From an uncultured Eubacteriales bacterium (lineage in GTDB: Bacteria; Bacillota; Clostridia; Oscillospirales; Oscillospiraceae), in contig UQGJ01000014.1 of NCBI GenBank assembly GCA_900540545.1, positions 11,801 to 43,800 on the forward strand: a stretch of 32,000 bases of DNA, read 5' to 3'. The stretch's first letter is position 1. The number at the start of each line of letters is the position of its first letter. A program made the translations under genes and the position numbers. This document shows positions 1,808 through 30,410 of this stretch, one piece after another. Below the pieces are notes generated by a model that was not told the DNA's origin, ran no database searches, and worked only from the letters and a program-made list of their open reading frames with translations.

Positions 1808-1821
1808 AAGCGACGAATGAT

Positions 1822-8570: not shown

Positions 8571-8696
8571 CGGGGAGACCTCCTTTTTATCCGGGGGACT
8601 GCAAAAATACGGCGCTGTGGAGGGTGTTCCAGGTTCGGGCGCAGCCCAGAACCGGGGGCGAAACGAGAAGCGGAACCCTATTCGCCGTGACCGTAT
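8571..8696 (-). promoter_or_regulatory. Conserved ~125-nt structured leader/intergenic element upstream of P1 (paralogous copy at 10413-10532)
   Basis: A long-range stem AAATACGG / CCGTATTT encloses about 75 nt, including the hairpin GGTTC(T)GGGC-TGC-GCCCGAACC. On the minus strand it is followed by TTTTT and then the RBS. Confidence 0.35.
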
Positions 8697-10412
8697 TTAC
8701 TCAGGTAAACCGATGACGCCGGTTTGGAAGAGGGTGTCGTCGAGCTGAGAGAAGTTCTTGATGGAGATGTAGAAATTTGCGCGGGGCTGCTCCATCCAAG
8801 TCTCCCAGTTGCCGGGGACCTGCATACTGCTGGTGGCCATTCTGGCCTCATATTCCGCCATGATTGTGGCCACGTCGTTGCGGGCCCACCAGTTGTAGCC
8901 GTCCAAATAGTTCATATAGAACTCGTCCCAGCTGGTGAATGTCTCCTGGGTCAGTCGGGCGGCGGGCTCCACCAGTTCCAGAGCCTCGGCGTAGGTGAGA
9001 TACCCGGCCGTATAGCCCCATTGGACCAGCGTTCCCATCCGGGAGAGGTCCCAGGCCAGGATGCCCTTGTCGCCCCACCGCTGGCTGAGCTGCTTGGTAT
9101 AGGGCCACATATACTTGTCGGTCTCGCCGGAGGCGGCGACAAGAGCGGCGAACTCCTGGTCGCTGAGGCTGTTAGCGATGGCGGCGGCCTCCTGGAAGGA
9201 GTCGTTGTGGCCGTGGGCGGTCATGCGGGTGACCAGCTCGATCAGGTCCTGGCGGTTTTGCACGCCCCAGGCGGAGACCAGGGAATTCCGGGTATTCTGG
9301 ACCTGCTGGGCGGTGCGCTCAAACTGGCCGAAGCGGACCTGGCTGTCCCGGTAATAAGAGGCGACGCCCAGGTCGATTTTATTCCGAATCAGCCCCATGG
9401 CTATGGCCCAAGCCTCCAGGTTGGAACTCTCCGCCACAGACTTGTCCTCATTGATCAATACCTGGTGCTTGATTCCGTCCCAGTCCACCGTTTGTCCGAA
9501 GAACTCGGCCACATAGCGGGCGGGGATGAGGGTGCGGCCCTCGGTGGCGTAGGGGGCCACGTCCATCTCCACCGGCTGGCCGTCCACCGTGGCGGTGGTG
9601 GAGTCCAGGGTCATGGTGACGGTGGAGCCGGCCCGTGTGAGGACGATTTTTTGTCCCTCTGGCACCCAGGTCACGTCGGCGCCCAGGGCCTCGGCCACGG
9701 CGCGGATGGGCACCATGGTGCGGCCGTTGCGGGCCTCCGGGGGCACGTCCATGGACAGCTCATTGCCGTCCAGCCAGATTTCGATATGGTTGAAGTAGGC
9801 GCCCCATCCGGCGGCCACCTCGGCCCGGAGGGTCTCCTGTTCCTCGGCGGTGAAAATCTCGGTGTCGGTGAGCTGATTGAGGGTGAACTGGGGAAATTCC
9901 AGCAGATAGGGGATGTATGCGTAGAGTTGTTCGCCCACGCCATAATTGCGCAGAACACCCCGGGCGGCCCACAGCAGCAGGACATATTTCTGCTGGTCGG
10001 TGAGACCCTCCAAAAGTGCGCTCGTCCCGTCTTCCAAGTAGTAGGACAGGTGGACATCGTGAGGGGTTTTTACGCCGTTGTTATTCCGAATCAGGCGGAG
10101 CTCCAGCAGCGCCCGCTCGAACAACACACCCATATCAAAGGAGTTGTCCGACCGCCGCTCGGGCAGGGCGTTAAAGTCCTTGAGCATGGGCAGGGTGGCG
10201 TTGCTGACGGGACCCCACCGCACAATCTCCCGGATGTCGGTGATGACCTTCCAGTGCTCCGGCTCATAGGCGGCGGAACCGGGGAAGACGGCGTACTCCT
10301 CCTCGGGACACCAGGGGGGAGGCGTGGGGGTGACGGCCTCCGCGGCCAGGGCGGGGGCGGACAGGGAGAGCGCCAGGGAGAGACACAACAGGAGCGAACA
10401 CAGCTTTTTCAA
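8697..10412 (-). CDS. Secreted protein P2, paralogue of P1 (signal peptide + variable N-domain + stalk domain + DUF1266-like domain)
   Basis: The signal peptide is identical to that of P1. It has the same stalk and DUF1266-like motifs and the same C-terminal tail LFQTGVIGLPE. Confidence 0.88.
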   Translation of the reverse strand: MKKLCSLLLCLSLALSLSAPALAAEAVTPTPPPWCPEEEYAVFPGSAAYEPEHWKVITDIREIVRWGPVSNATLPMLKDFNALPERRSDNSFDMGVLFERALLELRLIRNNNGVKTPHDVHLSYYLEDGTSALLEGLTDQQKYVLLLWAARGVLRNYGVGEQLYAYIPYLLEFPQFTLNQLTDTEIFTAEEQETLRAEVAAGWGAYFNHIEIWLDGNELSMDVPPEARNGRTMVPIRAVAEALGADVTWVPEGQKIVLTRAGSTVTMTLDSTTATVDGQPVEMDVAPYATEGRTLIPARYVAEFFGQTVDWDGIKHQVLINEDKSVAESSNLEAWAIAMGLIRNKIDLGVASYYRDSQVRFGQFERTAQQVQNTRNSLVSAWGVQNRQDLIELVTRMTAHGHNDSFQEAAAIANSLSDQEFAALVAASGETDKYMWPYTKQLSQRWGDKGILAWDLSRMGTLVQWGYTAGYLTYAEALELVEPAARLTQETFTSWDEFYMNYLDGYNWWARNDVATIMAEYEARMATSSMQVPGNWETWMEQPRANFYISIKNFSQLDDTLFQTGVIGLPE

Positions 10413-10532
10413 AGGAAAGACCTCCTTTTTATCCGTGGGACTGCAAAAATACGGCGCTGTGGGGGGTGTTCCAGGTCCAGCCCAGAACTGGGGACGAAAC
10501 GGGAAGCGGGACTCGCTCGCCGTTGACCGTAT
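10413..10532 (-). promoter_or_regulatory. Second copy of the conserved leader (upstream of P2)
   Basis: Aligns with 8571-8696, sharing AAATACGG...GCGCCGTATTTTTGCAGTCCC.CGGATAAAAAGGAGGTC. The internal hairpin carries a short deletion. Confidence 0.35.
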
Positions 10533-11666
10533 TTACTCCAGCAGGCCGATGACGCCGGTTTCGAAGAGGGTATCGTCGAAGATGGGGGCCAGGTCGGGGT
10601 CGGCCTTCATCTCCAGATAGAGCTTGCCCCGGGCGCTCTCCCACACGTTCTGGTCCAGGCCGTTACTCTTGGACCACCAAGTGTAGCCGTCCAGATAGTT
10701 TTCATAGGCCTCGTCCCAGGAGGAGAAATTCTCGCTCAGGAGGGTGGCGGCGGGCTCCAGCAGCAGGAGGGCCTCCTCATAGGTCACGTACCCGGCGCTG
10801 TAACCCCACTGGACCAGATTGCTCATGCGGAACAGATCCCAGGCGAGGATGCCGCGGTCTCCCCACTTTTCGTCCAGGGCAGACGTGAACTCCCACATAT
10901 AGGGGGGCCAGTCGAAGGACGGATTGCTGGCGGCCTGGGCATCCAGGGCGGCCTTTTCCTCCGCCGTCAGGTTCCTCGCATCCTCTGCGGCGCTGAAAAA
11001 CGTGGCGTTATGGCCATAGAAGGTCATACTCAGGACGGACTCCACCAAATCGTCCCGTTCCGGGATGTTCCAAGAGCTGCCGCTCAGCACCCGGGCGCTC
11101 TGCTTTGCGGTGGACGCGCTCCGGCGGTACAGGCCGAACCAAGCCGGGCTTCCCTGGTTGAGCTTCGCCAGCATGGCCCCCATGGGGAGGGCCCACGCCT
11201 CCAGGTTGGAGTCCCCCACCACCGATTTGTCCTCGGCAATGTCCACCCGGCGGGCCTCGCCGTCCCAGGCCACGGTCTGGCCGAAGAATTCGGCCACATA
11301 GCGGGCGGGGATGAGAGTGCGGCCCTCGGTGGCGTAGGGGGCCACGTCCATCTCCACCGCCACGCCGTCCACGGTGGCGGTGGTGGAGTCCAGGGTCATG
11401 GTGACGGTGGAGCCGGCCCGGGTCATCACGATCTCCTGGGTGTCCGGCACCCATTCCACGCCGGCGCCCAATGCCTCGGCCACGGCGCGGATGGGCACCA
11501 TGGTGCGCTCGCTGCGGACCTCCGGCGGGACATCCAGTTTCAGTTCCCGGTCATCCAGGAAGAGCTTGATGCCGCCGTCCTCTTGCGCCGCCTCCGCGGC
11601 CAGGGCGGGGGTGAGGAGGGGACAGGCCAAGGCCAAGGTCAGGATCACCGCCAGCAGCTTTTTCAT
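10533..11666 (-). CDS. Secreted protein P3: signal peptide + stalk domain + DUF1266-like domain (no variable N-domain)
   Basis: Internal ATG at 11666 with RBS GGAAAGGAG. Signal peptide MKKLLAVILTLALACPLLTPALA-AE. The Pro/Ser/Arg-rich upstream extension to 11810 is rejected. C-terminal tail LFETGVIGLLE. Confidence 0.85.
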   Translation of the reverse strand: MKKLLAVILTLALACPLLTPALAAEAAQEDGGIKLFLDDRELKLDVPPEVRSERTMVPIRAVAEALGAGVEWVPDTQEIVMTRAGSTVTMTLDSTTATVDGVAVEMDVAPYATEGRTLIPARYVAEFFGQTVAWDGEARRVDIAEDKSVVGDSNLEAWALPMGAMLAKLNQGSPAWFGLYRRSASTAKQSARVLSGSSWNIPERDDLVESVLSMTFYGHNATFFSAAEDARNLTAEEKAALDAQAASNPSFDWPPYMWEFTSALDEKWGDRGILAWDLFRMSNLVQWGYSAGYVTYEEALLLLEPAATLLSENFSSWDEAYENYLDGYTWWSKSNGLDQNVWESARGKLYLEMKADPDLAPIFDDTLFETGVIGLLE

Positions 11667-11700
11667 GATTGACTCCTTTCCAGTCGGGGGGGATACGGAT

Positions 11701-14649
11701 TTAGAAATCCAGCTCGTCCCAGGGGATGATTTTGGCGTTCTCAGGGGGGAGGGCGGCGGGGGGCGCGGAGACCTCCTTGGACTCGGAGGAGGCGGTGACG
11801 GTGAAGTCAAACTGGTTCTTATAGTGGACCTCGCCGGTCAGGGTCTGCTTTCCGCCGGCGCTCTTGGCGTCCATGGTGATTTGGAAATCCACGAAGCGAC
11901 CCAGGGTCCGGCCGGGGCGCATATCCATCTCCATGGCGTAGTCGCCGTTGTCGTGGACGGTGACGGTGAAGGCGCAGGCCCGGAAGGCGTCCTCGCCGTC
12001 CAGAGGGTCGTAGGAGTAAGGGACATCAGGGTCCGGGGCGGTGAGGTCCCGGATGAGGTCGTTGACGGTCTTGGTGTCCAGGGAGTAGGTCAGGGCGTTG
12101 CCCGCGCGGGTGAAGCGGCCGTCGCCCAAGAGGAGCGCCACCTGGTCGGCCTGCTCCAGCAGGCCGGCGTAGCTGTCCACGCCTACGGGGTCATAGTAGG
12201 ACCACTTCAGGCGGCGTGCGATGACGCTGTCGTAGAGCATGGCGCCCACGTTGAGGAGGGGGAGGGAGTCCACGGTGCCGTCCTTGTCCACGGTCTCGGT
12301 GGGCAGGGCCGCGCCGGGGGTCACGTAGAAGGGATAGAAGGAATCCAGGTCCATGGAGACCCAGTCGTCCTTGCCCACCGACTCGTCCAGCAGAGAGAAC
12401 AGGGGGGACTGGAGGTACAGGAGCTGGGTGTCCACGTTCCAGTAGAGCTTAAAGGTGGTGGACTTCAGCAGGGTCTTGAGGGTGGAGAGGCTGAACTTGG
12501 CTTCGCTCTGGTCCAGCATCTTCTGAACGTCGGCCCAGTCCTCCTTCGTAAGCTGGGAGAGGACCCCGGCCAGGTCCAGCTTGAGCTCGCACTCCATGGA
12601 GCCCTTGCCGGCCACGGTGGTGGCGTCGATTTTCACGGTGTAGGTCCTGTCGCCGTCCAGGCTGTTGAACAGGGTCAGGTCGATGGTCTCGCTGGAGGTG
12701 GTGCGGATGTTCCGCTGGGCGGTGTCCACCGCCTTGCCCAGCAGGGTGGAGAGCATCCGGTCGATTTGGGTAAAGTTTTGATTCAGCTCCGCGGCGATGG
12801 CCTCAGGGTCGAAGAGGACGGCGGTATCGTAGCCCGCGTCCCAGGCCAGGCCGCAGCCGAAGGCATCGGCCAAATCCCGGAGGGGGACGTAGGTGCGGCC
12901 GTCCTCGGCAAAGGCGGGGGAACTCATGGTGTATTTGCGGTCCTTGCCGTCGGTGGTGAGGGTGTACTTTTTGCCCTCCAGGGGGAAGGTCACGGTGACG
13001 CCGCCCTTGTCGCAGACGGCGGCGTTGGTGGTCTCGTCAAAGGAGACGGTATAGCCCAGGGCTTCGGCCAGGGCGCGGACGGGGATCATGGTGCGGTCGT
13101 TCCGGGCCACGGGCTTGGCGTCGGGGAAGGAGAGGTAGGCCCCGTTGAGCATGACGCTGAGCTCGCCGGGGACGCCGCCCAGCTCCCGCTTGTGGGCGTC
13201 CCGCTGGGCCTTGGCCTCGGCGTTGGCAGCCCGGTCGGCCTTCCAGCTCTCGTAGAGGGCGGCGTAGGCGGACTCCTTCACGGTAAGGTAGTTATCGTCC
13301 ATGTAGTCCTGGAGACTGGTATAGCGGGGATAGTAGTGGGAGGCGTTATACTCGCCGGACTGGAACCAGCGCTCCACGTCGGCCACGAAGGCGGCGGTGT
13401 CCTCGGGCTCGGCGGCCTGGAAGGCGGCCCACTGGTCCTGGGCGGCCTGGGCGGCCTCCTGCTCCTGGATCATGTAGTAGAGCATCTCGGTACGGAACTG
13501 CTCCTCGCTGTCGGTGGTGGGAGCCAGCTCCATATACTCCTGCTTGGAGTCATAGTAGCGGTCGGCGTTATAGACTTCCTTGAAGTACTGGTCGGCGTCG
13601 AAGGCGGCGAATTCCTCCGGGTGTTCCGCGGCCCAGGCGTCCACCTCGGCCTGCATATCCGCGTTTGCGGCCTGCGTATCCAGCATGTCCAGGAGCATGG
13701 CCAGCCGGAATTCTTCCTCGGTATCAAGGCGATAGGCGTCCATATATTCTTCTTTGTCGCCGTAATAGGGATAATGCGTTTCCAGCCAGGCGTCGGCGTC
13801 GAAAGCGGCGTACTCGTCGGGGTGGGCGGCGCTCCATGCGTCGGCCCGGGCCTGGCGCCGCTCGGCGCCCACCTGGCTCTGCACCCACAGCCAGGTCATC
13901 TGGCGCAGGAATTCCTCCTCCGTGGCGTACCCGTAGGAGGACATGTACTCTTCCATGGTCCAGTAGCTGTAAGTATCCTCAAAGAACTCCATGGGGTCGA
14001 ACTCGGCAAATTCCTCCGGGTGTTCGGCGGCGTAGGCGTCGATGTCGGTTTGCTGTTCGGCGGCGGTCTCCTGCTCCTGGATCATGAAGTAGAGCATCTC
14101 GGCGCGGAACTGCTCCTCGCTGTCGGTGATGGGAGACATCTCCATAAACTCCTGCTTGGAGTCATAGTAGCGGTCGGCGTTATAGACTTCCTTGAAGTAC
14201 TGGTCGGCATCGAAGGCGGCATACTCCTCCGGGTGTTCGGCGGCCCAGGCGGCCACCTTCTCCTGGATCATGCCCGTCCAATACTGCTCGGAGAGCCAGT
14301 CCTCCCGCATGTTTTCCTGGAAATCGGCCTCGGTATAGAGGTCGAAGTAATACATATAGTCCTTCTTGGCGTAGTAGCTGCCGTAGCGCGCTGTGAACCA
14401 GCCGTCGGCGTCGAATTCGGCGCTGTGGGCGGCCCAGTAGGCGTCTTTCCAGGCTGCGGCGTCGGCTGCCTCCTGAGCCTGTTCGCCGTACTCGTCCTCG
14501 GTCATGTACTGGCGCTCCAGCATGTCTTCCAGGGAGGTATAGCCGCGCTCCTTCCAGAGGGGTGGATCGGTGTCCTGGTACGCCAGGGCGGGGGCAAAAA
14601 GAGTGCAGGACATTGCCAGGGTCAGGACCAGCGCCAGCAGTTTTTTCAT
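11701..14649 (-). CDS. Large secreted protein P4: signal peptide + six ~62-aa acidic/aromatic repeats + stalk domain + ~380-aa unassigned C-domain
   Basis: 982 aa. Signal peptide MKKLLALVLTLAMSCTLFAPALA-YQ. The repeats resemble AWAAEHPEE(Y/F)AAFDADQYFKEVYNADRYYDSKQE.ME...TDSEEQFR.EMLY.MIQEQE. Stalk motif NDRTMIPVRALAEALGYTV...GRTYVPLRDLADAFG. Confidence 0.85.
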   Translation of the reverse strand: MKKLLALVLTLAMSCTLFAPALAYQDTDPPLWKERGYTSLEDMLERQYMTEDEYGEQAQEAADAAAWKDAYWAAHSAEFDADGWFTARYGSYYAKKDYMYYFDLYTEADFQENMREDWLSEQYWTGMIQEKVAAWAAEHPEEYAAFDADQYFKEVYNADRYYDSKQEFMEMSPITDSEEQFRAEMLYFMIQEQETAAEQQTDIDAYAAEHPEEFAEFDPMEFFEDTYSYWTMEEYMSSYGYATEEEFLRQMTWLWVQSQVGAERRQARADAWSAAHPDEYAAFDADAWLETHYPYYGDKEEYMDAYRLDTEEEFRLAMLLDMLDTQAANADMQAEVDAWAAEHPEEFAAFDADQYFKEVYNADRYYDSKQEYMELAPTTDSEEQFRTEMLYYMIQEQEAAQAAQDQWAAFQAAEPEDTAAFVADVERWFQSGEYNASHYYPRYTSLQDYMDDNYLTVKESAYAALYESWKADRAANAEAKAQRDAHKRELGGVPGELSVMLNGAYLSFPDAKPVARNDRTMIPVRALAEALGYTVSFDETTNAAVCDKGGVTVTFPLEGKKYTLTTDGKDRKYTMSSPAFAEDGRTYVPLRDLADAFGCGLAWDAGYDTAVLFDPEAIAAELNQNFTQIDRMLSTLLGKAVDTAQRNIRTTSSETIDLTLFNSLDGDRTYTVKIDATTVAGKGSMECELKLDLAGVLSQLTKEDWADVQKMLDQSEAKFSLSTLKTLLKSTTFKLYWNVDTQLLYLQSPLFSLLDESVGKDDWVSMDLDSFYPFYVTPGAALPTETVDKDGTVDSLPLLNVGAMLYDSVIARRLKWSYYDPVGVDSYAGLLEQADQVALLLGDGRFTRAGNALTYSLDTKTVNDLIRDLTAPDPDVPYSYDPLDGEDAFRACAFTVTVHDNGDYAMEMDMRPGRTLGRFVDFQITMDAKSAGGKQTLTGEVHYKNQFDFTVTASSESKEVSAPPAALPPENAKIIPWDELDF
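13240..14465 (-). repeat. Intragenic tandem repeats of P4 (six units); units 2 and 5 are near-identical at DNA level
   Basis: 14069-14256 versus 13457-13646 show about 13 mismatches in about 190 nt by eye. The other units are recognisable only at protein level. Confidence 0.7.
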
Positions 14650-15137
14650 GTTTGACTCCTTTCCAGTCGCGCGGAAGGATTTTGCACGATGTACGAGCGG
14701 GTCTCCGAGAGGTCCTGGGGGTTGCGGAGGATGTGGTCGTAGTAGTCATCCTGCCACACGGGCTTTCCCCATGTTCGGGTGGTAAAGCCCTTCAAGGCAT
14801 TGATGACCTGTGGCAGTGATGTAGGGGCCGCCGACCCCGGTGGCCCGTCTCCGGTCAATTGTATCAACAGGTGGACATGGTCCGGCATAATGATATATTG
14901 GTCTACATGGACATCGGGGTAAGCACAGTCAATGCCTTGAATCAACTGGTCTACAATCTGGCCTAAAGGGGTGAGCTGAAGCCGCGGGCCGCCGGGGTCG
15001 GCGGCCCCTACGGGCAGAAGAGAGGAAAAGATGTTTTGGTTTCTGACCTTGGCGCAGATGGTGACGAAATAAAATCCGGGCTGGGAATAATCGTAATGCT
15101 TCAAATGGTGATATTTGCGCACCGGATATGGGTTCAT
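14646..15137 (-). CDS. Y1/HUH transposase-like protein (IS200/IS605 TnpA fold; RayT / REP-associated tyrosine transposase-like), apparently orphan
   Basis: ATG at 15137 with GAGGTG RBS. HUH motif in IIMPDHVHLLIQ, the family pattern GKPVWQDDYYDHILRN, and a candidate catalytic Tyr in TRSYIVQNP. Its stop overlaps the P4 start (ATGA). Confidence 0.82.
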   Translation of the reverse strand: MNPYPVRKYHHLKHYDYSQPGFYFVTICAKVRNQNIFSSLLPVGAADPGGPRLQLTPLGQIVDQLIQGIDCAYPDVHVDQYIIMPDHVHLLIQLTGDGPPGSAAPTSLPQVINALKGFTTRTWGKPVWQDDYYDHILRNPQDLSETRSYIVQNPSARLERSQT

Positions 15138-15150: not shown

Positions 15151-17133
15151 TTACGAAATATCCGCCAGCTCCAGGTATTTATAGCCGTTTTCGGCAATGT
15201 GGTCCTTTCTGCCGCTGAGGTTGTCGCCCAGGAGGAGGTCGAAGGTGGCAGCGGTCCGGGCTACGTCCTCGGGCATGACCTTGATGAGACGGCGGGTGTC
15301 CGGGTTCATGGTGGTCAGCCACATCATGTCCGGCTCGTTCTCGCCCAGGCCCTTGGAGCGCTGGATGGTGAACTTTTTGCCCTCCAGCTCCCTGAGGATG
15401 TCGGCCTTCTCCGTCTCGTTATAGGCGAACCAGGTTTTTTCCTTGAAGGTGATTTCGTAGAGGGGGGATTCCGCGATATAGACGTAGCCCCGCTGGATGA
15501 GGGTGGGGGTCAGGCGGTAGAGCATGGTGAGGACCAGGGTTCTGATTTGGTAGCCGTCCACGTCGGCGTCGGTACAGATGACCACCTTGTTCCACCGCAG
15601 GTTCATCAGGTCGAATTCCGGCAGGTCCTTGGCCCGCTTGTCGTGGACCTCCACGCCGCAGCCCAGGACCTTCAGCAGGTCGGTGATGATCTCCGACTTG
15701 AATATCTTGCCGTAGTCGGCCTTGAGGCAGTTCAAGATTTTGCCCCGGATGGGCATGATGCCCTGGAAGTCCGAGTCCCGGGCCAGCTTCACCGAGCCCA
15801 GGGCCGAGTCGCCCTCCACGATATACAGCTCCCGGCGCTCGGTGTCCTTGGTGCGGCAGTCCACGAATTTCTGGACCCGGTTGGAGATGTCCATGCTGCC
15901 GGTGAGCTTTTTCTTGATGTTCAGGCGGGCCTTCTCGGCGGACTCCCGGGAACGCTTGTTAATGAGGACCTGCTCGGCGATTTTGCCCGCGTCGAAGGGG
16001 TTCTCGATGAAGTAGACCTCCATCTGGGCCTTCAAAAACTCGGTCATGGCCTCCTGGACGAACTTGTTGTTGATGGCCTTTTTGGTCTGGTTCTCGTAGG
16101 AGGTCTGGGTGGAGAAGTTGTTGGAGACCATCACCAGACAGTCCTGGATGTCGGCCCAGGTGATTTTGCTCTCCGACTTCTGGTATTTGCCCTGCTGCTT
16201 GAGGTAGCCGTCGATGGCAGAGACCAGGGCGGACTTCATGGCCTTTTCCGGGCTGCCGCCGTGCTCCAGCCAGGAGGAGTTGTGGTAGTGCTCAATGATC
16301 TGCACCGTGTTAGAGAAGCACAGGGAGACGGAGAGCTTCACCTTATACTCCGGCTTGTCCTCCCGGTCCCGGCCCTTGCGCTCGGTCTGCCAGAACACGG
16401 GGGTGGTGAGGGCGTTCTCCCCGGCCAGCTCCCGGACGTAGTCCACGATGCCGTTTTCGTACTTGAACTCGGTGGTCTCGAATTTGCCCCCCACCTGGTT
16501 GCGGAAGCGGAAGGTGATGCCCGCGTTGACCACGGCCTGGCGCTTCATCACATCCAGGTAGAACTCGGGGGGGATATTGGTGTCGGTGAACACGTCCAGG
16601 TCGGGCAGCCAGTGGAATTTGGAGCCGGTCTTTTTGCCGGTATAGGGGGTCTTGGTCAGACCGCCCACGTTCTCGCCCTTTTCAAAGTGGAGGGTGTACT
16701 CGAAGCCGTCCCGGTGGATGACGGCGTCGAAGTACCGGCTGGCATACTGGGTGGCGCAGGAGCCCAGGCCGTTGAGGCCCAGGGAGTACTCGTAGTTGTC
16801 GCCGTCGCCGGTGCCGTACTTGCCGCCGGCGTACAGCTCGCAGAACACCAGCTCCCAGTTGAACTTCTGCTCCTTCTCGTTCCAGTCCACCGGGCAGCCC
16901 CGGCCGAAGTCCTCCACCTCGATGGAGTGGTCCTCGTACCGGGTGACGGTGATGACGTCGCCGTGGCCCTCCCGGGCCTCGTCGATGGCGTTGGACAAAA
17001 TCTCAAAGACGGCGTGCTCGCAGCCCTCCAGCCCGTCGGAGCCGAAGATGACGCCGGGGCGCTTGCGGACCCGGTCGGCCCCCTTCAGGGCGGAGATGGA
17101 TTCGTTGCCGTAGTGTTTACTGCTCTTTGGCAT
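15151..17133 (-). CDS. parE: Type IIA DNA topoisomerase subunit B (ParE/GyrB family)
   Basis: 660 aa with the GHKL ATPase motif EILSNAIDEA, Toprim LYIVEGDSALGS, PIRGKILN and DADVDGYQIRTL. Confidence 0.93.
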   Translation of the reverse strand: MPKSSKHYGNESISALKGADRVRKRPGVIFGSDGLEGCEHAVFEILSNAIDEAREGHGDVITVTRYEDHSIEVEDFGRGCPVDWNEKEQKFNWELVFCELYAGGKYGTGDGDNYEYSLGLNGLGSCATQYASRYFDAVIHRDGFEYTLHFEKGENVGGLTKTPYTGKKTGSKFHWLPDLDVFTDTNIPPEFYLDVMKRQAVVNAGITFRFRNQVGGKFETTEFKYENGIVDYVRELAGENALTTPVFWQTERKGRDREDKPEYKVKLSVSLCFSNTVQIIEHYHNSSWLEHGGSPEKAMKSALVSAIDGYLKQQGKYQKSESKITWADIQDCLVMVSNNFSTQTSYENQTKKAINNKFVQEAMTEFLKAQMEVYFIENPFDAGKIAEQVLINKRSRESAEKARLNIKKKLTGSMDISNRVQKFVDCRTKDTERRELYIVEGDSALGSVKLARDSDFQGIMPIRGKILNCLKADYGKIFKSEIITDLLKVLGCGVEVHDKRAKDLPEFDLMNLRWNKVVICTDADVDGYQIRTLVLTMLYRLTPTLIQRGYVYIAESPLYEITFKEKTWFAYNETEKADILRELEGKKFTIQRSKGLGENEPDMMWLTTMNPDTRRLIKVMPEDVARTAATFDLLLGDNLSGRKDHIAENGYKYLELADIS

Positions 17134-18839: not shown

Positions 18840-18847
18840 AGCGTATG

Positions 18848-18878
18848 GGACCGTGTACAGGGTACACGGTCCTTTTTT
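18848..18878 (+). terminator. Rho-independent terminator of the SLH gene
   Basis: GGACCGTGTAC-AGG-GTACACGGTCC (11-bp stem) followed by TTTTTT. Confidence 0.8.
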
Positions 18879-18880
18879 GT

Positions 18881-19556
18881 CCGCCTGCGGGCGGGGAGGG
18901 GGGGGAGCGACCCCCTCCGGGGGTGTCGCCTCCGGCGGGGGTCCTCTTTCTCATTTGAGAAAGAGGACGGAAAGAAAACCAGGGCCGCGGCCCTGGACCT
19001 AGGGGCGGCGCCAACGGGGCTTGGGGGTTGAGACCGGCTTGTGGGGACAAGTCTGCCTTTTTGCTTCCGCCCCGGCCGTTACGGCCTAATGTGCGGTTGG
19101 TCCACCTGTTGCGCTGGCGCGGCGCGCCTAGCGTGGCGAGTCCCGGCAAGGCGGGTGCAGAGACGGGCCGCCGAGGTCGGCGGCCCCTACGGCATGAGCC
19201 GAAGGTCTCTTGTAGGGGCCGCCCACTGGGCGGCCCGTGCAGACTGGCGATAGGCGCAAGACCCCGTAAAAGGCGCATAAACCTTGTGGCGGCTTGTTTG
19301 CACCGAGTAAAACGCAACTATTATCAAGTTTTGCCGGGTCATATGCCGAGGGGCGGCAGCCGGAGTTGTTCGGGCGCGTGCCAATACCGGGCTGCAACGG
19401 CTTTCAAGTCTTGCCAGCAAACGTGAACCGTACCGCCGCCCGGACGTTCCCTGGGTCCAGGGGGCGGCGGATAGGGCATTGAAAATGCCCGTGCCGCCTC
19501 CGGCCCTTCTTTCCGTCCCCTTTCTTCGAGAAGAAAGGGGACCCGCCGGAGGCCCC
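18881..19556 (-). repeat. Copy B of the hairpin-mosaic repeat family (inverted relative to A and C), bounded by ~55-bp terminal inverted repeats
   Basis: Ends 18929-18983 and 19500-19552 are inverted copies: CCTCCGGCGGG.TCC-[CTTTCT..AGAAAG palindrome]-GACGGAAAGAA. The interior is collinear with the reverse complement of copy A. Confidence 0.8.
19165..19236. repeat. REP/BIME-like doublet: two GTAG-headed GC hairpins in inverted orientation
   Basis: 19165-19190 is GGGCCGCCG-AGGT-CGGCGGCCC-CTAC, which has a GTAG head on the minus strand. After a 21-nt linker, 19212-19236 is GTAG-GGGCCGCCC-ACT-GGGCGGCCC. Confidence 0.55.
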
Positions 19557-19603
19557 CTTTGTGACGATTCTGAAAACATTCCATGAACCTTTCCCGGTAA
19601 GAA

Positions 19604-19632
19604 TTGACGGACGCCGAAGAACGCGATATGCT
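19604..19632 (+). promoter_or_regulatory. Candidate promoter of the MarR gene
   Basis: TTGACG (19604-19609), 17-nt spacer, TATGCT (19627-19632). The inverted repeat GAATC-N6-GATTC (19643-19658) lies between the promoter and the RBS and is a possible operator. Confidence 0.45.
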
Positions 19633-19674: not shown

Positions 19675-20133
19675 ATGAAGGGTTCCAACGACATTCTGAT
19701 GACCTATCTGCGGGTGTCCCAGCACATGTCCCGGCTGTTCCGGGACCACTATGGGCGGCTGCAGCTCACCTTCCCCCAGGCCCTGGTACTCACGGTGTTG
19801 GGCGAGGAGGGGCCGGTGCCCATCAGCGCCCTGGCCGAGCGCACCGGCAGCGCCAACTCCACTGTGTCCGGCATTGTGGACCGGCTGGAAAAGCTGGGGC
19901 TGGCCCGGCGGGAGCGGTCCGGGGAGGACCGGCGGGTCATCTACGTCACCGCCACCGAAAAATTTGACTGTCTGCGCAAGCGGGCCGAGACCGACGTGGG
20001 CGGTTATTTCAGCTCGGTTTTGGAGAGCATGACAGAGGAGGAGCGCCGGGCCGTCGCCCAGGCGCTGACCCGGCTGGACGAGGCGCTGCTGGACAAGGAG
20101 GCCCAGGATGCCGCGGCGGTGAAAAAAGGGTGA
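19675..20133 (+). CDS. MarR-family transcriptional regulator (alternative ATG at 19669)
   Basis: Winged-helix pattern LTFPQALVLTVLGEEGPVPISALAERTGSANSTVSGIVDRLEKLGLARRERSGEDRRVIYV. RBS AAGGAG lies 7 nt upstream of 19675. Confidence 0.85.
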   Translation: MKGSNDILMTYLRVSQHMSRLFRDHYGRLQLTFPQALVLTVLGEEGPVPISALAERTGSANSTVSGIVDRLEKLGLARRERSGEDRRVIYVTATEKFDCLRKRAETDVGGYFSSVLESMTEEERRAVAQALTRLDEALLDKEAQDAAAVKKG

Positions 20134-20205
20134 TTTTTCGCGCCGGCTGTGGTATACTTCCTTCGAAATAGTATTCCATGACAAGTTTGTAAGGATGGAA
20201 TTCAG

Positions 20206-21282
20206 ATGAAAAGGAACTACGGTTACGATACCTACCGGGGCCGCTCCGGGTTCCGGACCTTCCTGAAGGTCCTGGCCGCCGCCCTGGTCATCGTGCTGGT
20301 GGTGGTCGTGGCGGGCGCCCTGTGGATCACGGAGCGGTACGGCGTCTACTCCGCCGACGGGGTGCGCCTGGTGCTGCCCTGGCTGGACCGGGAGCCGGAG
20401 CCGGTGAGCAGCGTGGAGGTGCTGCCCGTCGTCCCCAGCCAGCCCATCGTGGTGGTGACGCCGGAGGTGACCGGCCCCGCCGACCTCCAGTGCGTGAGCC
20501 TGCCCCGGGAGGCCCTCTATGACGGCTCCGCCGCCGGGGCGGTGGCGGCTGCCGGGGCCAACGGGGCCCTCTTCGACATGAAGGCCGACGACGGGTCCCT
20601 GGGCTACGTGTCCAGCCTGGACCTGGCCATCAAGGCCAAGGTCTCGGCCGACGACCCGGCCCTCAACGCGGCCATCCGCGCTCTCAACGACACGGAGGGG
20701 ATGTACACCGTGGCCCGGGTCTCCTGCTTCAAGGACGACAAGCTCTCAGACGCGGAGAAGGCCCTCAACATCCTCACCAACAGCGGCTACCGCTGGACCG
20801 ACCCGGAGGGGCTCCACTGGTCCAGCCCCACCAGCGAGTCGGTGCGGGATTACCTCACATCGGTCTGCCTGGAGCTGGCCGGGCTGGGGTTCGACGAGAT
20901 CGTGCTGGACCACGCGGGCTACCCCACCCAGGGCAACCTGGGCTATATCAAAAAGGGCGCGGCCTATGACCCGGAGGCCCTGGACGGGGTCGTGACCGGG
21001 TTCTACCAGCAGGTGCGGGAGGCCCTGTCCGGGCAGTATCCCGACGTGAAGCTGTCCATCGTGACCACCCAGGCCGCCCTGGACGGCACCGACGTCCTCA
21101 GCGGGCAGACCGCCGGGGCCGTGGCCGGGAGCGCCGACCGGGTGTGGATGAAAGAGGCCGAGACGGCCGGGGCGGAGCGGCTGCTGGCCGCCGCGGGGAT
21201 GGAGGACGCCGGAGACAAACTGGTGCCCCTGCTGGACGCCCCCGGTCCGGCGGACGGGAGCTGGGCCGTCTGGAACTGGTAA
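20206..21282 (+). CDS. Membrane-anchored DUF4015-like putative glycoside-hydrolase-fold protein
   Basis: N-terminal TM helix (VLAAALVIVLVVVVAGALWI). YTVARVSCFKDD and WTDP...VRDYLTSVCLELAGLGFDEIVLDHAGYP match the pattern I recall for DUF4015 (GHL-type) proteins. Confidence 0.7.
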   Translation: MKRNYGYDTYRGRSGFRTFLKVLAAALVIVLVVVVAGALWITERYGVYSADGVRLVLPWLDREPEPVSSVEVLPVVPSQPIVVVTPEVTGPADLQCVSLPREALYDGSAAGAVAAAGANGALFDMKADDGSLGYVSSLDLAIKAKVSADDPALNAAIRALNDTEGMYTVARVSCFKDDKLSDAEKALNILTNSGYRWTDPEGLHWSSPTSESVRDYLTSVCLELAGLGFDEIVLDHAGYPTQGNLGYIKKGAAYDPEALDGVVTGFYQQVREALSGQYPDVKLSIVTTQAALDGTDVLSGQTAGAVAGSADRVWMKEAETAGAERLLAAAGMEDAGDKLVPLLDAPGPADGSWAVWNW

Positions 21283-21350
21283 AAATTCCGGGACAATTTT
21301 TCGGGTTTGTCCGAAGGAAAACGCGTCTTTTTTACAAATCTCACAAATAG

Positions 21351-21398
21351 GAGAGACCGCACAGCCGACAATGTTGTGCGGTCTCTCTAAATTTTTTT
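21351..21398 (+). terminator. Rho-independent terminator
   Basis: GAGAGACCGCACA (21351-21363) pairs with TGTGCGGTCTCTC (21375-21387), followed by AAATTTTTTT. Confidence 0.7.
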
Positions 21399-21439
21399 CT
21401 GTGGCCCTACCAATATGTAAGGTGGTTGCAGTTTTTGGC

Positions 21440-21468
21440 TTGATTTTGACTTCGGTACAGTGTATTAT
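21440..21468 (+). promoter_or_regulatory. Candidate promoter of the V-ATPase operon
   Basis: TTGATT (21440-21445), 17-nt spacer, TATTAT (21463-21468). Confidence 0.45.
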
Positions 21469-21529
21469 GGGAGGTATTCTAGGGCAGTATCAAATTTATG
21501 GATACCTACCATCGAAAGGCGGTGATGGA

Positions 21530-21843
21530 ATGTCTTTAGAAGCAGTCCAAAAGGTGACCGAGGCCGAGCAGAAGGCCCGGGAGCGGAAGGCCGAGGCGGA
21601 GGCCCAGGCCAAGCGCATGGTGGCCGAGGCCGAGAAGGCCGGCCGGGAGCGGCTGGCCGCGGCCCGCGCCGAGGCCGAGGCTCAGGTCCGGGAGATGATG
21701 ACCCGGGCGGAGGCCAAGGCCGACCTGCACACGGAGACCGTGATGGCGGAGACCCGGCGGTCCTGTGACAGCCTGCGCAGCGGTGCCCAGGATAAACTGG
21801 CGGACGCGGCGGCACTGATTGTCAGAAAGGTCGTGGGAGTCTA

Positions 21844-21844
<1 letters not shown>
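21530..21844 (+). CDS. V/A-type ATPase small peripheral-stalk subunit (G/H-like, Ala/Glu-rich coiled coil)
   Basis: Internal ATG at 21530. The 104-aa sequence (MSLEAVQKVTEAEQKARERKAEAEAQAKRMV...) occupies first position in the operon, like E. hirae NtpF. Its TAA overlaps the ATG of subunit I. Confidence 0.7.
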
Positions 21845-24337
<2,493 letters not shown>

Positions 24338-24347
24338 GGAGACACCT

Positions 24348-25034
24348 ATGAACGGAATCGAAAAGATCACCGGCCGCATCGACGCCGACATCCAGCAGGA
24401 GATCGACGCCATCCAGGCCGACGCCAAGGCCCAGGCCGACGCCATCGCCGCCGACTACGAAGCGCGGGCCAAGGCCGAGGCCGAGGCCATCCTGAAAAAG
24501 GGCGCGGAGGCCGCCGCCCAGCGGGAGGAACGCCTGGGTTCCGTGGCCCAGCTGGAACACCGCAAGCTCACCCTCGCCGCCAAGCAGGAGATGGTGGAGC
24601 AGGCCTTCCAGCAGGCCATGCGGGAGCTGGTGGGACTGCCCGACGAGCAGTACATCGCCCTGCTGGCCAACCTGTGCGCCCAGGCCAGCCGCACCGGCCG
24701 GGAGCAGGTCATCTTCTCCCAGAAGGACCGCTCCCGCTTCGGCAAGGCCGTGGTCACCATGGCCAACGACATCCTGGCCCGGAAGGTGGCCCCCAAGCTG
24801 CCCGACGAGTTTACCGAGTCCAAGGCGGGGGCCTTCCTGGACAAGGTGGTCACCGGGGCCTCCGCCGTGCTGGCGGGGACCGGTATGCTCACCCTGGCCG
24901 AGGACACCCGGCCCATGGCCGGGGGCCTCATCCTGCGGGACGACAAGGTGGAGACCAACTGCTCCTTCGAGGTGCTGATCCACCTCCAGCGGGACGCCCT
25001 GGCCAACGAGGTGGCCAAGACCCTGTTCGGCTAA
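24348..25034 (+). CDS. ntpE: V-type ATPase subunit E
   Basis: 228 aa with an N-terminal long Ala/Glu/Gln coiled coil and a globular C-terminus. Position in the operon supports the call. Confidence 0.88.
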   Translation: MNGIEKITGRIDADIQQEIDAIQADAKAQADAIAADYEARAKAEAEAILKKGAEAAAQREERLGSVAQLEHRKLTLAAKQEMVEQAFQQAMRELVGLPDEQYIALLANLCAQASRTGREQVIFSQKDRSRFGKAVVTMANDILARKVAPKLPDEFTESKAGAFLDKVVTGASAVLAGTGMLTLAEDTRPMAGGLILRDDKVETNCSFEVLIHLQRDALANEVAKTLFG

Positions 25035-25069
25035 GGCCCCGCACCTCCCCAGCAAAAGGAGGAATCGAC

Positions 25070-26068
25070 TTGCCCAAGAAAATCAACGAATACGACTATC
25101 TCAATATCTCCACCCGCATCCACGCCATGGAGACCCGGTTGTTGACGGCCGAGCGGATGGAGCGGATGCTGGACGCCCGCTCCGCCGAGGAGGCCGCCAA
25201 GGTCCTGGCCGAGTGCGGCTATCCCGAATTCGACGACCTGACCCCCGCCGGCATCGAGCGGGTACTGGACCAGGTCCGTCTGGAGACCATGGCCGACCTG
25301 CGCAAGGCGGCCCCCGACCCGGCCATGGTGGACGTGTTCTGCATCCAGTACGACTACCATAACGCCAAGGTCCTGCTGAAGGCCCAGGCCACCGGCCGGG
25401 AGCCGGACGGGCTGTTCATCGACGCGGGGCGCTACCCCGCCCAGCAGCTCCGGGAGGACTTCGCCAAGGACGACCTCCACGGCACCGACACATTCCGCAG
25501 GGCCGTTGCCCAGGCCAGAGAGACCCTGGCCCTCACCGGCGACCCCCAGGCCGCCGACTTCATCCTGGACCGGGCCTACTACGACGAGCTGACCCGGGCC
25601 GCCAGGGACAGCCGCAGCGCCTTCCTGCTGGGCTACGTCCAGCGGTCCATCGACGTGGCAAACCTGCGCTCCGCCGTCCGCTCCGCCCGGATGGGCCGGG
25701 GGGCGGAGTTCCTCCGCCGGGTGCTCATCCCCGGCGGCACGGTGGGGACCGAGTCCCTGGTGGCGGCTGCCACCGGGGCCGGGGACCTGACCGGCGCCGT
25801 GGGCACCGGGCCGCTGACCGCCGCCGCCGAGGCGGGGGGCAAGGCCATGGAGGGGGGCAGTCTCACCCGGTTCGAAAAACTCTGCGACGACGCCCTCACC
25901 GCCTATCTGGCGGGGGCCAAGAGCGTCCCCTTCGGGGAGCATCCCCTCATCGGCTACCTCTACGCCCGGCAGGCGGAGCTGACCGCCATCCGCATCATCC
26001 TCACCGGGCGCATGGCGGGGCTGGACACGGACACCATCCGGGAAAGGCTGCGTGAGAGCTATGTCTGA
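25070..26068 (+). CDS. ntpC: V-type ATPase subunit C (d-subunit homologue), TTG start
   Basis: TTG at 25070 lies 8 nt after AAAGGAGG. The 332-aa product (LPKKINEYDYLNISTRIHAMETRLLT...) has typical size and operon position. Confidence 0.88.
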   Translation: MPKKINEYDYLNISTRIHAMETRLLTAERMERMLDARSAEEAAKVLAECGYPEFDDLTPAGIERVLDQVRLETMADLRKAAPDPAMVDVFCIQYDYHNAKVLLKAQATGREPDGLFIDAGRYPAQQLREDFAKDDLHGTDTFRRAVAQARETLALTGDPQAADFILDRAYYDELTRAARDSRSAFLLGYVQRSIDVANLRSAVRSARMGRGAEFLRRVLIPGGTVGTESLVAAATGAGDLTGAVGTGPLTAAAEAGGKAMEGGSLTRFEKLCDDALTAYLAGAKSVPFGEHPLIGYLYARQAELTAIRIILTGRMAGLDTDTIRERLRESYV

Positions 26069-26381
26069 GCTGAACTACCACATCGCCGTGGTGGGGGACC
26101 AGGCCAGCGTCCTGGGCTTCAAGGCCCTGGGGCTGGACGTGTACCCCGCCGAGACGGTGGACGAGGCCCGGGAGACCCTCCACCGGCTTGCCAAGGAGGA
26201 CGTGGCCATCGTCTACCTCACCGAACAGCTGGCCCAGGGCCTGCAGCCGGAGATCGAGCGGTACAAGGACGCCCTGACCCCGGCCATCATCCTCATCCCC
26301 GGCAAGGGAGGCAGCCTGGGCATCGGCATGGACAACGTGAAAAAGTCCGTGGAGCGCGCCGTGGGCGCGGATATCCTCTAG
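26061..26381 (+). CDS. V-type ATPase subunit F (alternative GTG start at 26052)
   Basis: 106 aa with IAVVGDQASVLGFKALGLDVYP...AIILIPG, the typical F-subunit pattern. Confidence 0.88.
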   Translation: MSELNYHIAVVGDQASVLGFKALGLDVYPAETVDEARETLHRLAKEDVAIVYLTEQLAQGLQPEIERYKDALTPAIILIPGKGGSLGIGMDNVKKSVERAVGADIL

Positions 26382-26500
26382 CCGCGTCGATTTTCTGCGG
26401 AAAATCTCTGCCGCTGTGCGGCAGGGACGCGGCTTCTAGGGGGAACCAGTTCCCCCTAGATACGGGCCTTTGGCCCGATACCCTCTCCGCTCTCCGAGGG
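26381..26500 (+). repeat. Dense hairpin cluster in the F-A intergenic spacer
   Basis: An outer stem 26381-26388/26426-26433 encloses hairpins 26389-26406 and 26408-26424. Further hairpins follow at 26436-26459, 26463-26477 and 26481-26500. Confidence 0.6.
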
Positions 26501-26542
26501 GGTAGGAAATAAGCGAAATCACCCGAAAGAAGGTTGATACGT

Positions 26543-28318
26543 TTGAGCAGCGGAAAGATCGTAAAAGTCTCCGGGCCGCTGGTCGTCGCCACCGGACTGG
26601 CCGACGCCAACATGGCCGACGTGGTCCGCGTGGGCGAGCAGCGCCTCATTGGCGAGATTTTGACCATGAACGGCGACTCCGCCTCCATCCAGGTCTATGA
26701 GGAGACCTCCGGCCTGGGCCCCGGCGCGGCGGTGGAGACCACCGGCTCCCCCCTGTCCGTGGAGCTGGGCCCCGGCCTCATCGAGAACATCTACGACGGC
26801 ATCCAGCGCCCCCTGGAGAAAATCATGGAGGTGGCCGGGTCCACCATCACCCGCGGCATTGAGCTGCCCGCCCTGGACCACACCAAGCAGTGGGACTTCA
26901 CCCCCACCGTCCAGGCCGGCGACAAGGTCTCCGGCGGCGACGTCATCGGCACCGTGCCCGAGACCGTCTCCGTGCTCCACAAAATCATGGTGCCCCCCAA
27001 GATGAGCGGCACCATCGAGTCCATCCAGTCCGGCTCCTTCACCGTGCTGGATACCGTGGCCACCCTGCGGCTGGACAACGGGGACGTGGTCCCCCTGACC
27101 ATGGTGCAGAAGTGGCCCGTCCGCGTGGGCCGGCCCTACAAGCACAAATATCCCCCCAAGACCCCCCTGCTGTCCGGCCAGCGCATCGTGGACGCCCTGT
27201 TCCCCATCGCCAAGGGCGGCACCGCCGCCATCCCCGGCCCCTTCGGCTCCGGCAAGACCGTCATGCAGCACCAGCTGGCAAAGTGGTCCGACGTGGACAT
27301 CGTCATCTACATCGGCTGCGGCGAGCGCGGCAACGAGATGACCGACGTGCTCCGGGAGTTCCCCGAGCTGGTGGACCCCCGAAACGGCGAGCCGCTGATG
27401 AAGCGGACCGTCCTCATCGCCAACACCTCCGACATGCCCGTGGCCGCCCGTGAGGCGTCCATCTACACCGGCATCACCATCGCCGAGTATTTCCGCGACA
27501 TGGGCTACGACGTGGCCGTCATCGCCGACTCCACCTCCCGCTGGGCCGAGGCCCTCCGCGAGATGTCCGGCCGTCTGGAGGAGATGCCCGGCGAGGAGGG
27601 CTACCCCGCCTATCTGGCCTCCCGTCTGGCCCAGTTCTACGAGCGGGCCGGCTCCGTGGAGTGCATCACCAGCCAGGGCGACCGCCGCGGCAGCCTGACC
27701 GCCGTGGGCGCGGTCTCCCCTCCGGGCGGCGACCTGTCCGAGCCGGTGAGCCAGGCCACCATGCGCATCGTCAAGGTGTTCTGGGCCCTGGACGCCTCCC
27801 TGGCCTACCGCCGCCACTTCCCCGCCATCAACTGGCTGAATTCCTATTCCCTCTACCTGGACTCTCTGAAGCCCTGGTACGACGAGAATCTGGGCAAGCA
27901 GTTCATGGTCAACCGCGACAAGGCCATGAGCATCCTCCAGGAGGAGGCCAGCCTGAACGAGATCGTCCAGCTGGTTGGCAAGGACTCCCTGTCCCCCAAC
28001 GACCAACTCACCCTGGAGACGGCCAAGATGCTCCGGGAGGACTTCCTCCAGCAGAACGGCTTCATGGAGGTGGACTGGTACTCCAGCTATGAGCGCCAGG
28101 ACAAGATGCTGGAGATGATTTTGGACTACGACAAGCTCTGCCGCGCCGCCATCGCCAAGGGCGCCAACGCCAACGACCTGTTCGCCATCCCCTTCCGGGA
28201 GAAGATGGGTCGGGCCAAGAGCGTGCCAGACAACGATTTCCCCGCCGTTTACGCCGATATGGCCCGGGAAATGGCCGAGCAGATCGACGAAATCGCGGCA
28301 AAGGGAGGCGAGGACTGA
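26543..28318 (+). CDS. ntpA: V-type ATPase catalytic subunit A (alternative TTG start at 26534)
   Basis: Walker [10 protein letters not shown], plus [27 protein letters not shown]. The RBS GAAGG is 9 nt upstream of the TTG at 26543. Confidence 0.95.
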
Positions 28319-29700: not shown

Positions 29701-29703
29701 ATC

Positions 29704-30408: not shown

Positions 30409-30410
30409 CA

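Follow-up and report, generated by a model that had tools for sequence, protein, structure and literature searches.

A RayT-like Gene and a Hairpin Pair in an Oscillospiraceae Contig

We analyzed a 32,000-nucleotide stretch of DNA (the window; contig UQGJ01000014.1, positions 11,801 to 43,800) from an uncultured bacterium of the Oscillospiraceae. It carries a pair of GTAG-headed hairpins resembling repetitive extragenic palindromic (REP) elements (19163-19238) and, about 4 kb away, a gene for a Y1 HUH protein (14646-15137, minus strand) that resembles the REP-associated tyrosine transposases, termed RayT, RAYT or TnpAREP. An earlier reading made from the letters alone (the sequence-only reading) had proposed that the two might form a REP-RayT system in a Clostridia genome, and the analysis reported here supports that proposal through REP units inside the gene, RayT-class motifs, the E. 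coli TnpAREP structure 4ER8 as best structural match, and a conserved gene locus.

The plus-strand unit of the pair (19212-19238) reads GTAGGGGCCGCCCACTGGGCGGCCCGT, i.e., a GTAG followed by a 9-bp stem (GGGCCGCCC/GGGCGGCCC) closed by a 3-nt loop. Its partner (19163-19190) reads GTAGGGGCCGCCGACCTCGGCGGCCCGT on the minus strand and appears on the plus strand as an inverted REP (iREP) with a CCCCTAC end. The GTAG heads point inward across a 21-nt linker (19191-19211), an arrangement that corresponds to the ‘TT’ dimer in the nomenclature of Di Nocera et al. (PMC3733652). The sequence-only reading had placed these two facing hairpins at 19212-19236 and 19165-19190, and both were recovered with slightly wider limits. 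When folded as single-stranded DNA, the 91-nt segment around the pair (19155-19245) gave −36.2 kcal/mol (z = −6.2) for one strand and −35.3 kcal/mol (z = −7.3) for the other, and none of 200 shuffles folded equally well.

The core GTAGGGGCSGC is found at five exact sites in the window (828-838, minus; 14821, plus; 15001-15011, minus; 19180-19190, minus; 19212, plus), as against 0.09 ± 0.29 in shuffles, none of which reached five, so that this core is over-represented in the window. A general scan of the window for GTAG plus a hairpin returned 21 units, where random sequence gives 4.9 ± 2.2. One sequence family accounts for only five of the 21, namely 814-838 (minus), 14821-14847 (plus), 14985-15011 (minus), 19163-19190 (minus) and 19212-19238 (plus). 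These five have stems of 9-11 bp and loops of 3-4 nt, and all show the GT[AG]G foot by which we define a GTAG-type REP (GT[AG]G followed after 0-2 nt by a GC-rich stem-loop 20-40 nt long). Three of them are intergenic, while the other two lie within the RayT-like gene itself. By every in-silico test used, the pair at 19163-19238 is supported as putative GTAG-type REPs arranged in an inverted dimer resembling bacterial interspersed mosaic elements (BIMEs).

The Protein Is of the RayT Class

The open reading frame (ORF) at 14646-15137 is real and intact, and codes for a 163-aa protein with an HVH motif at residues 87-89, WQ at 128-129 and Tyr149 in a YIVQNP motif; the window allele retains all predicted catalytic and GTAG-contact residues. 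Across 18 homologs H87-V-H89 is invariant, W128-Q129 and R138 are invariant or nearly so, and Y149-IVQ-N153-P is at least 90% conserved. The Y---NP motif is the signature of TnpAY1 class 2 (the RAYTs), while that of IS200 is Y---Q (PMC6006769). The residues with which E. coli TnpAREP (4ER8) contacts the GTAG are W94, Q95, E100, H101 and R104 (PMC6006769), and these align with W128, Q129, D134, H135 and R138 of the window protein, which would make the same contacts judging by the alignment; the E-to-D change at the E100 position is as in subclasses 2.5 and 2.7 (PMC6006769).

Profile and structure comparisons point the same way. The protein scores 53.3 bits with the NCBIfam model REP_Tyr_transpos (NF047646) as against 20.7 bits with the NCBIfam IS200 model. 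A search of the PDB with a profile of the 18 homologs recovered 4ER8 as the best match (E = 8.5e-9), with ISDra2 at 7e-3 and IS200-type structures at ~1e-2. The AlphaFold2 (AF2) model of the protein (pLDDT 84, pTM 0.79) likewise has 4er8_A at Foldseek rank 1 (TM 0.65/0.64, rmsd 2.9 Å), compared to a query TM of ~0.47 for IS200-type structures; the identity to E. coli TnpAREP is only 20%. Thus, motifs, profile, predicted fold, gene ends and locus together support a RayT-class rather than an IS200-class protein.

The Gene Resides in a Type IIA Topoisomerase Operon

The upstream neighbor, just 13 nt away from the RayT-like gene, codes for a type IIA topoisomerase B subunit (gyrB/parE-like; 15151-17133, minus); the stop of the RayT-like gene overlaps the next start (ATGA). 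Its boundaries hence leave no room for insertion sequence (IS) ends on either side, and no tnpB was found, in agreement with the sequence-only reading, which had described the gene as a Y1 HUH homolog devoid of IS ends. The gene for the topoisomerase A subunit, which directly follows the RayT-like gene in relatives, is found at 4559-6802 (minus) in the window, where four tandem Cu_amine_oxidN1/DUF1266 paralogs (6837-14649; 377-982 aa, with internal repeats) separate the two; these paralogs are absent from this position in L011 and L120/L125. Both topoisomerase subunits are divergent, scoring below the gyrase as well as the topoisomerase IV equivalog cut-offs.

The combination of topoisomerase B and rayT is shared by the window, the same species in other samples (L119), a related member of the Clostridiales (L011), the loci L120-127 and L134-136 (homologs P0019, P0012 and P0030) and L137 (P0003), with rayT followed by either topoisomerase A or Cu_amine_oxidN1 genes. 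Between lineages the RayT proteins are 48-52% identical and the topoisomerase subunits 69-79%. More distant homologs (P0034, P0041 and P0050) occur in other gene contexts. From its sequence and neighborhood, the RayT-like gene appears to be a domesticated, vertically inherited gene at a single locus in a type IIA topoisomerase operon, where ‘single locus’ refers to the loci examined rather than to full-genome copy number.

REP Units Are Embedded in Frame within the Gene

It is two REP units inside the gene that connect the enzyme to the repeats, and not the 4-kb proximity of gene and dimer, which provides no basis for a connection because unrelated genes intervene. These in-gene units had been overlooked by the sequence-only reading, as had the larger repeat around the dimer that is described below. 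One unit (14985-15011, minus) encodes VGAADPGGP in a loop formed by residues 42-51, upstream of the HUH motif; the other (14821-14847, plus) encodes GPPGSAAPT in a loop formed by residues 95-107, just after the HUH strand. In the AF2 model the former loop lies between two strands, and the latter leads from the HUH strand to the helix that follows. The units are 26-27 nt long and mutually inverted, with their GTAG heads pointing outward, and they flank a 137-nt segment that codes for the HUH motif; the two peptides are reverse-complement translations of one another. A repeat search showed 96% identity between the two in-gene units (14821-14847 versus 14985-15011) and 94% between 19160-19190 and 14821-14851. 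Further, the unit at 14986-15011 is identical at 26 of 26 positions to an extragenic unit 8 kb past the end of the window (L128:14745-14770, in a locus that is 100% identical to window 19704-32000) and at 25 of 26 positions to 19165-19190.

Homologs from other lineages have GT[AG]G-footed hairpins of their own in these same two loops, each with a lineage-specific stem sequence. L011 has two copies of GTAGGGGCCGCCGCCCTCGGCGGCCC, L120/L125 have GTAGGGGCGATTATCAATCGCCC and GTAGGGGCGGCAATCTGCCGCCC, and L137 has GTGGGG(A/G)CCGCC... with a third copy in the 56-nt upstream spacer. In L138 we found GTAGGGCAGGGGCTTGCCCCTGCC and relatives, with one more copy on either flank, and in Deferribacter abyssi (33% GC) GTAGGGGCAGAATCCATTTCTGCCC, where further copies lie just upstream and the downstream side has a double-foot palindrome. 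In L124, L137 and L138 there are matching units close by but outside the gene, and a GGG/CCC stem base is common to all in-frame units of the window, L011, L120/125, L124, L137 and L138. Double-foot units were seen at L124:11256-11283 and four times in Oscillospiraceae loci. Even in more distant homologs the paired peptides are visible, e.g., VGADIIRP...GRMISAPT and VGAGLAPA...RAPARGAPT. Because each lineage has its own stem sequence at the same two loops, the conserved entity appears to be the hairpin with its GTAGGG...CCC foot and not the peptide.

One of these loci, L138:437-1060 with homolog P0034 (39% identity), is a compact textbook REPtron: REPs flank the gene at 437-460 (minus) and 1037-1060 (plus), and two more lie in frame within it at 622-645 (plus) and 798-821 (minus).

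Units in Related Genomes Are Extragenic and Paired

When one genome per species was scanned for the exact pattern, at least 116 stretches were obtained, about half of them of the Oscillospiraceae type among the matches listed, and only one of the 116 (L011, again among the matches listed) is a RayT gene. The hairpin core GTAGGGGCCGCC...GCGGCCC is also frequent in Vicinamibacterales and Gemmataceae (loci L001-L116, among the matches listed); such a core shared by unrelated high-GC phyla points to either convergence or common GTAG REP families.

We then considered 52 Oscillospiraceae-type loci, in which 102 of 124 GTAGGGGC hairpin units lie outside predicted coding sequences (CDS), with ~80% of the DNA predicted as coding by a crude GC3-based ORF filter. 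These units comprise 18 TT (head-inward), 10 HH (head-outward) and 18 tandem pairs, along with four double-foot palindromes and 38 singletons. The gaps are mostly 11-33 nt in TT pairs and 11-35 nt across all pairs, compared to 21 nt in both the window and copy D of the repeat described below. The intergenic bias and the inverted doublets anticipated by the sequence-only reading are hence seen in these relatives, where the placement and pairing of the units look, by sequence, like REP/BIME behavior. In the ~47 kb of the window genome that we examined, there are seven canonical units.

The Dimer Lies at the Center of a ~610-bp Repeat

The REP dimer forms the center of a non-coding repeat of ~610 bp, of which five copies were found in ~52 kb, with mutual identities of 76-90%. 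Copy A (465-1290, plus) has one REP, a degenerate second unit and an inserted extra of ~210 nt (839-1098); copy B (18926-19557, minus) has the dimer discussed above at its center; and copy C (30870-31170, plus) retains just the 5′ module, ending ~50 nt before the REP position. Beyond the window, copy D (L128:14373-14985, plus) contains a REP dimer and copy E (L128:16514-17128, plus) a single hairpin without GTAG. The complete copies have terminal inverted repeats of 38-50 nt, each with its own different hairpin (CCCCTTTCTTC...GAAGAAAGGGG), and compensatory changes are found in two 5′ hairpins of the repeat. Its orientation with respect to neighboring genes is inconsistent. Between copies B and D the REPs are identical at 53 of 55 positions, while the flanking modules are 82% identical and the linker matches at 16 of 21 positions. 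Judging from its sequence, the single hairpin of copy E is the remnant expected if two units had lost the DNA between their direct-repeat arms.

The REP unit of copy A (814-838, minus; GTAGGGGCGGCTATCAGCCGCCCGT) occupies the same aligned position as 19212-19238 and shows compensatory stem changes, i.e., it is a true homolog, much as the sequence-only reading had suggested for 816-838. Of the further GTAG-headed arms which that reading had listed in this copy, the one at 955-983 (plus) does belong to a degenerate second unit (GTAG, 5 nt, and an 8-bp stem with one G-T pair), whose counterpart in the alignment is the second unit of copies B and D. The other two, given as 883-905 and 1053-1075, are not REP hairpins: 883-903 and 1055-1075 are the arms of one long-range inverted repeat of 21 nt, 95% complementary and 151 nt apart. 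The extra of copy A (839-1098) contains this long inverted repeat plus a bulged hairpin at ~905-940, and BLAST matches it weakly to two further loci from Oscillospiraceae (L022 and L035); it may represent a second repeat family.

The 5′ and 3′ modules of the repeat, when searched with blastn and nhmmer against ~1 Mb of fetched loci, matched only contigs of the same genome or its strains, and the repeat appears to be species-specific. A metagenome scan with an invariant 21-mer of the repeat gave two matches that lack BLAST similarity to the window and were set aside as chance. Rfam recovered only a tRNA-Gly at gathering threshold in the window, and with E-value thresholds on 18850-19620 and 400-1750 it gave only sub-threshold chance matches; no family explains the hairpins or the repeat. 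We also rejected a sigma-54 promoter built from the repeated GGCAAGACTTG...GTTGC motif, by eye, on account of wrong spacing, and a view of the whole repeat as a giant palindrome centered on the REP dimer, as only the 38-50 nt ends are inverted.

Assemblies of other samples break within the repeat, and low-GC (42-44%) cassettes of small genes lie directly upstream of copy A (window 1-463, with an XRE-type HTH gene at 194-463) and copy C (30440-30876, with an RHH_3 gene of 57 aa on the minus strand beside a 55-aa Cys-rich ORF at 30709-30876). Beyond the tRNA-Gly(GCC) gene (1732-1807, minus), window 1-1810 differs among strains of the same species (L130, L131 and L132), with breakpoints inside copy A, which suggests a variable region or an integration hotspot.

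Interpretation and Alternatives

The reading that we favor, and consider probable, is that the Y1 HUH enzyme of the RayT/TnpAREP class encoded at 14646-15137 has the REPs at 19163-19238 as its cognate DNA. The E. coli TnpAREP acts on single-stranded DNA only and binds a REP via its hairpin and 5′ GTAG; it cuts C|T beside an inverted unit or in the linker with formation of a 5′-phosphotyrosine, and the ensuing strand transfer gives rise to BIME variation and amplification (PMC3333891, PMC8266576). By analogy, when the locus becomes single-stranded, e.g., at a replication fork, each strand would expose one REP (GTAG plus hairpin), which the enzyme would grip through hairpin and GTAG foot. Each strand would also present one inverted REP ending in ...CCCC|TAC, near which Tyr149 would cleave to form a 5′-phosphotyrosine link, and rejoining would let REP dimers be copied, deleted or homogenized. 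Since each strand has one REP and one inverted CCCC|TAC unit, the substrate geometry would be complete.

Several observations weigh against this reading. Binding, cleavage and mobilization by the window enzyme are argued purely by analogy with the E. coli TnpAREP. The NF047646 score of the protein falls below the cut-off of 80 bits, so that it represents a divergent branch outside the NCBI equivalog. The window has no cognate REPs beside the gene, where there is no room for them, and the classical REPtron layout is absent. Beyond the Oscillospiraceae, the exact-pattern matches listed include Vicinamibacterales (Acidobacteriota) and Gemmataceae (Planctomycetota), i.e., the core is not confined to one clade. 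In the P0019/P0012 lineage there are REPs within the gene but no extragenic copy in the 10-20 kb flanks of each locus. One widespread P0030 allele (198 member sequences) has an in-frame stop, and in a sister lineage many database alleles (P0030, P0032, P0035 and P0037-P0039; L134:5800-6600) have frameshifts or deletions exactly at the second in-gene REP, which means that the gene is dispensable at least in those lineages; this clustering reflects either a mutational hotspot at the hairpin or assembly error at a GC hairpin. Finally, in the ~47 kb of the window genome all five extragenic units lie inside the 610-bp repeat, and therefore REPs may spread here only as its passengers. Flanking REPs are nevertheless present at the homologous loci L124 and L137, and at L138.

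The confinement of these extragenic units to the 610-bp repeat is the core of a competing explanation, which we regard as possible though distinctly less plausible: the hairpin pair would be a fixed module of a ~610-bp element akin to a MITE (miniature inverted-repeat transposable element) served by another transposase, or of a structured RNA gene, with the RayT-like protein uninvolved. The five extragenic units (one in copy A, two each in B and D) all sit at the same central position of the repeat, where copy E has its collapsed single hairpin, and the five copies within ~52 kb, the hairpin-bearing terminal inverted repeats and the compensatory changes in the two 5′ hairpins are what such an element might show. 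However, related genomes have REP units and dimers with no trace of the 610-bp modules (blastn and nhmmer, ~1 Mb of loci), the modules around the REPs are markedly less conserved than the REPs themselves, which also match the units within the gene, and the change from the dimer of copies B and D to the single hairpin of copy E shows turnover at the REP itself. This explanation partly overlaps with the one favored here; REPs in the window genome may have spread at least in part as passengers of the 610-bp repeat. Alternatively, the REPs could be relics, with the gene a domesticated remnant that is inactive or in decay and the hairpins either neutral or co-opted by the host as mRNA stabilizers or protein-binding sites. 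The truncated and frameshifted alleles common in the sister lineage (P0030 with its 198 member sequences, P0032 and P0035-39), the low copy number in the sampled DNA and the GC content of the gene (~52% versus 63% for the genome) fit such decay. We nonetheless think it unlikely, given the intact window allele with its full set of catalytic and GTAG-contact residues, the retention of the locus across lineages whose topoisomerase subunits are only 69-79% identical, and the near-identity of in-gene and extragenic units, which argues for ongoing homogenization.

Two more conventional explanations fare worse. As GC-rich stem-loops in the intergenic space between two same-strand genes, the hairpins might be taken for intrinsic terminators or attenuators of their neighbors, with no connection to a transposase. 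We rejected this very improbable reading for want of T-runs after either hairpin: a terminator scan makes no call there, while the upstream gene has its own terminator with a T-run (18847-18873), and the same unit recurs within coding sequence and in both orientations. The least credible proposal is that gene and hairpins form an IS200/IS605-type insertion sequence with subterminal hairpin ends. Apart from a Pfam Y1_Tnp match just above the cut-off (24.8 versus 23 bits), little speaks for it: the 13-nt gap and ATGA overlap exclude ends, the motif is Y---NP and not Y---Q (PMC6006769), tnpB is lacking, and the gene keeps a single syntenic locus in several lineages.

An extension of the reading that we favor would assign a role to the in-gene units. 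Instead of being passive insertions, the in-frame inverted REPs might be a maintained self-target for regulating, inactivating or re-homogenizing the gene, by the enzyme or by inter-repeat recombination. The conserved position of the gene between the two topoisomerase subunit genes might also stem from a coupling of REP processing with topoisomerase action at REP dimers, and the 610-bp repeat would then be a REP-centered composite. An inversion of 14848-14984 would truncate the protein before the HUH motif, judging from the plus-strand ORF, and the suggested coupling echoes the gyrase cleavage that reportedly occurs at E. coli BIME-2. We offer this extension as speculation, and hold it to be rather improbable as a whole.

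To our knowledge, experimental tests of REP-RAYT systems have been confined to a few Proteobacteria, and the window provides a compact and intact example from an abundant lineage of gut Clostridia. The pairing of enzyme and repeat has unusually direct evidence behind it, since the gene for the enzyme itself contains the substrate sequence twice. Moreover, the fixed position in a topoisomerase operon offers a way to test how REPs might be linked to DNA topology, a connection that has long been discussed, while the general picture of REPs and RAYTs is left unchanged.

Comparison with Known Systems

The system shares with the IS200/IS605 TnpA proteins the HUH/Y1 chemistry on hairpin-containing single-stranded DNA, attributed to the window enzyme by its class. 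In contrast, those transposases have the Y---Q motif, occur in multiple copies with left- and right-end hairpins, and are often accompanied by tnpB, none of which was seen here. With the REPtron of E. coli K-12 (TnpAREP/YafM, 4ER8; Y and Z REPs and BIMEs) the likeness extends to the Y1 HUH fold and GTAG-contact residues, a GC-rich hairpin with GTAG as its 5′ foot, a gene that is single-copy and inherited vertically, and inverted dimers with a short linker that present on each strand one REP and one inverted REP ending in CC|TAC. Yet the REPs of E. coli form imperfect palindromes and contain a bulge that is essential, whereas those described here have perfect or near-perfect stems of 9-11 bp; the E. 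coli gene is flanked by BIMEs with none inside it, and activity has been shown for E. coli only. The REPINs of Pseudomonas fluorescens, i.e., REP doublets in which two inverted REPs give a larger hairpin-capable unit as they do here, are presumed to be what replicates, with the help of a single-copy RAYT (Bertels and Rainey 2011, PMC3116915). The dimer of the window differs in its 21-nt linker, its inward GTAG heads and its nesting in a 610-bp repeat that has terminal inverted repeats.

The closest parallel is TnpAY1 subclass 2.4 (group 4 of Bertels), whose REPs have a stem base of three G-C pairs and include ‘double-foot’ forms, and whose ‘unique feature’ is the presence of REPs within the tnpAREP genes, in a peripheral loop and with the frame undisturbed (Quentin et al. 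2018, PMC6006769). The clade described here shares the GT[AG]G-footed hairpins with a three-G-C stem base, the double-foot palindromes (in relatives of the window), the in-frame REPs in surface loops beside the HUH strand, the WQ and YIxNNP-type motifs, and a low gene copy number with a scattered distribution across phyla. It departs from subclass 2.4 in having DHVH in place of NH[IFV]H and D for E100, both of which are traits listed for subclass 2.7. The window protein combines DHVH with YIVQNP and its close relatives combine DHVH with YIRNNP or YIQNNP, while distant homologs have NH[VIF]H. By motifs only, the clade would be intermediate: DHVH with D at E100 fits 2.7, DHVH with YI[LR][NQ]NP would suit 2.7 equally well as 2.4, and the in-gene and double-foot REPs fit 2.4. 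A further difference is that the two in-gene REPs bracket the HUH motif here, while the insertions reported for subclass 2.4 lie mostly between HuH and Y; the absence of flanking REPs in the window, the Oscillospiraceae gut host and the type IIA topoisomerase operon also set it apart.

In kind, then, the system is already known: in-frame REPs in tnpAREP genes were published in 2018, and GTAG REPs occur across many phyla. A catalogue of GTAG REPs from many prokaryotes, which covers their HH, TT and HT dimers as well as intragenic REPs, was given by Di Nocera et al. 2013 (PMC3733652), and Bertels et al. 2017 found group 4 in 17 bacterial classes (PMC5581495). Hence the novelty that the sequence-only reading had seen in a system outside the Proteobacteria does not hold in general, as GTAG REPs and RAYTs are on record from many phyla (PMC3733652, PMC6006769, PMC5581495); it does hold for the host, as the searchable literature yielded no description of such a system in Clostridia or Oscillospiraceae, nor of a RAYT in a topoisomerase operon. 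What is new is thus limited to the host lineage and the context, namely a gene without flanking REPs in a topoisomerase operon, in-gene REPs that bracket the HUH motif, and the nesting of the REP dimer in a 610-bp repeat.

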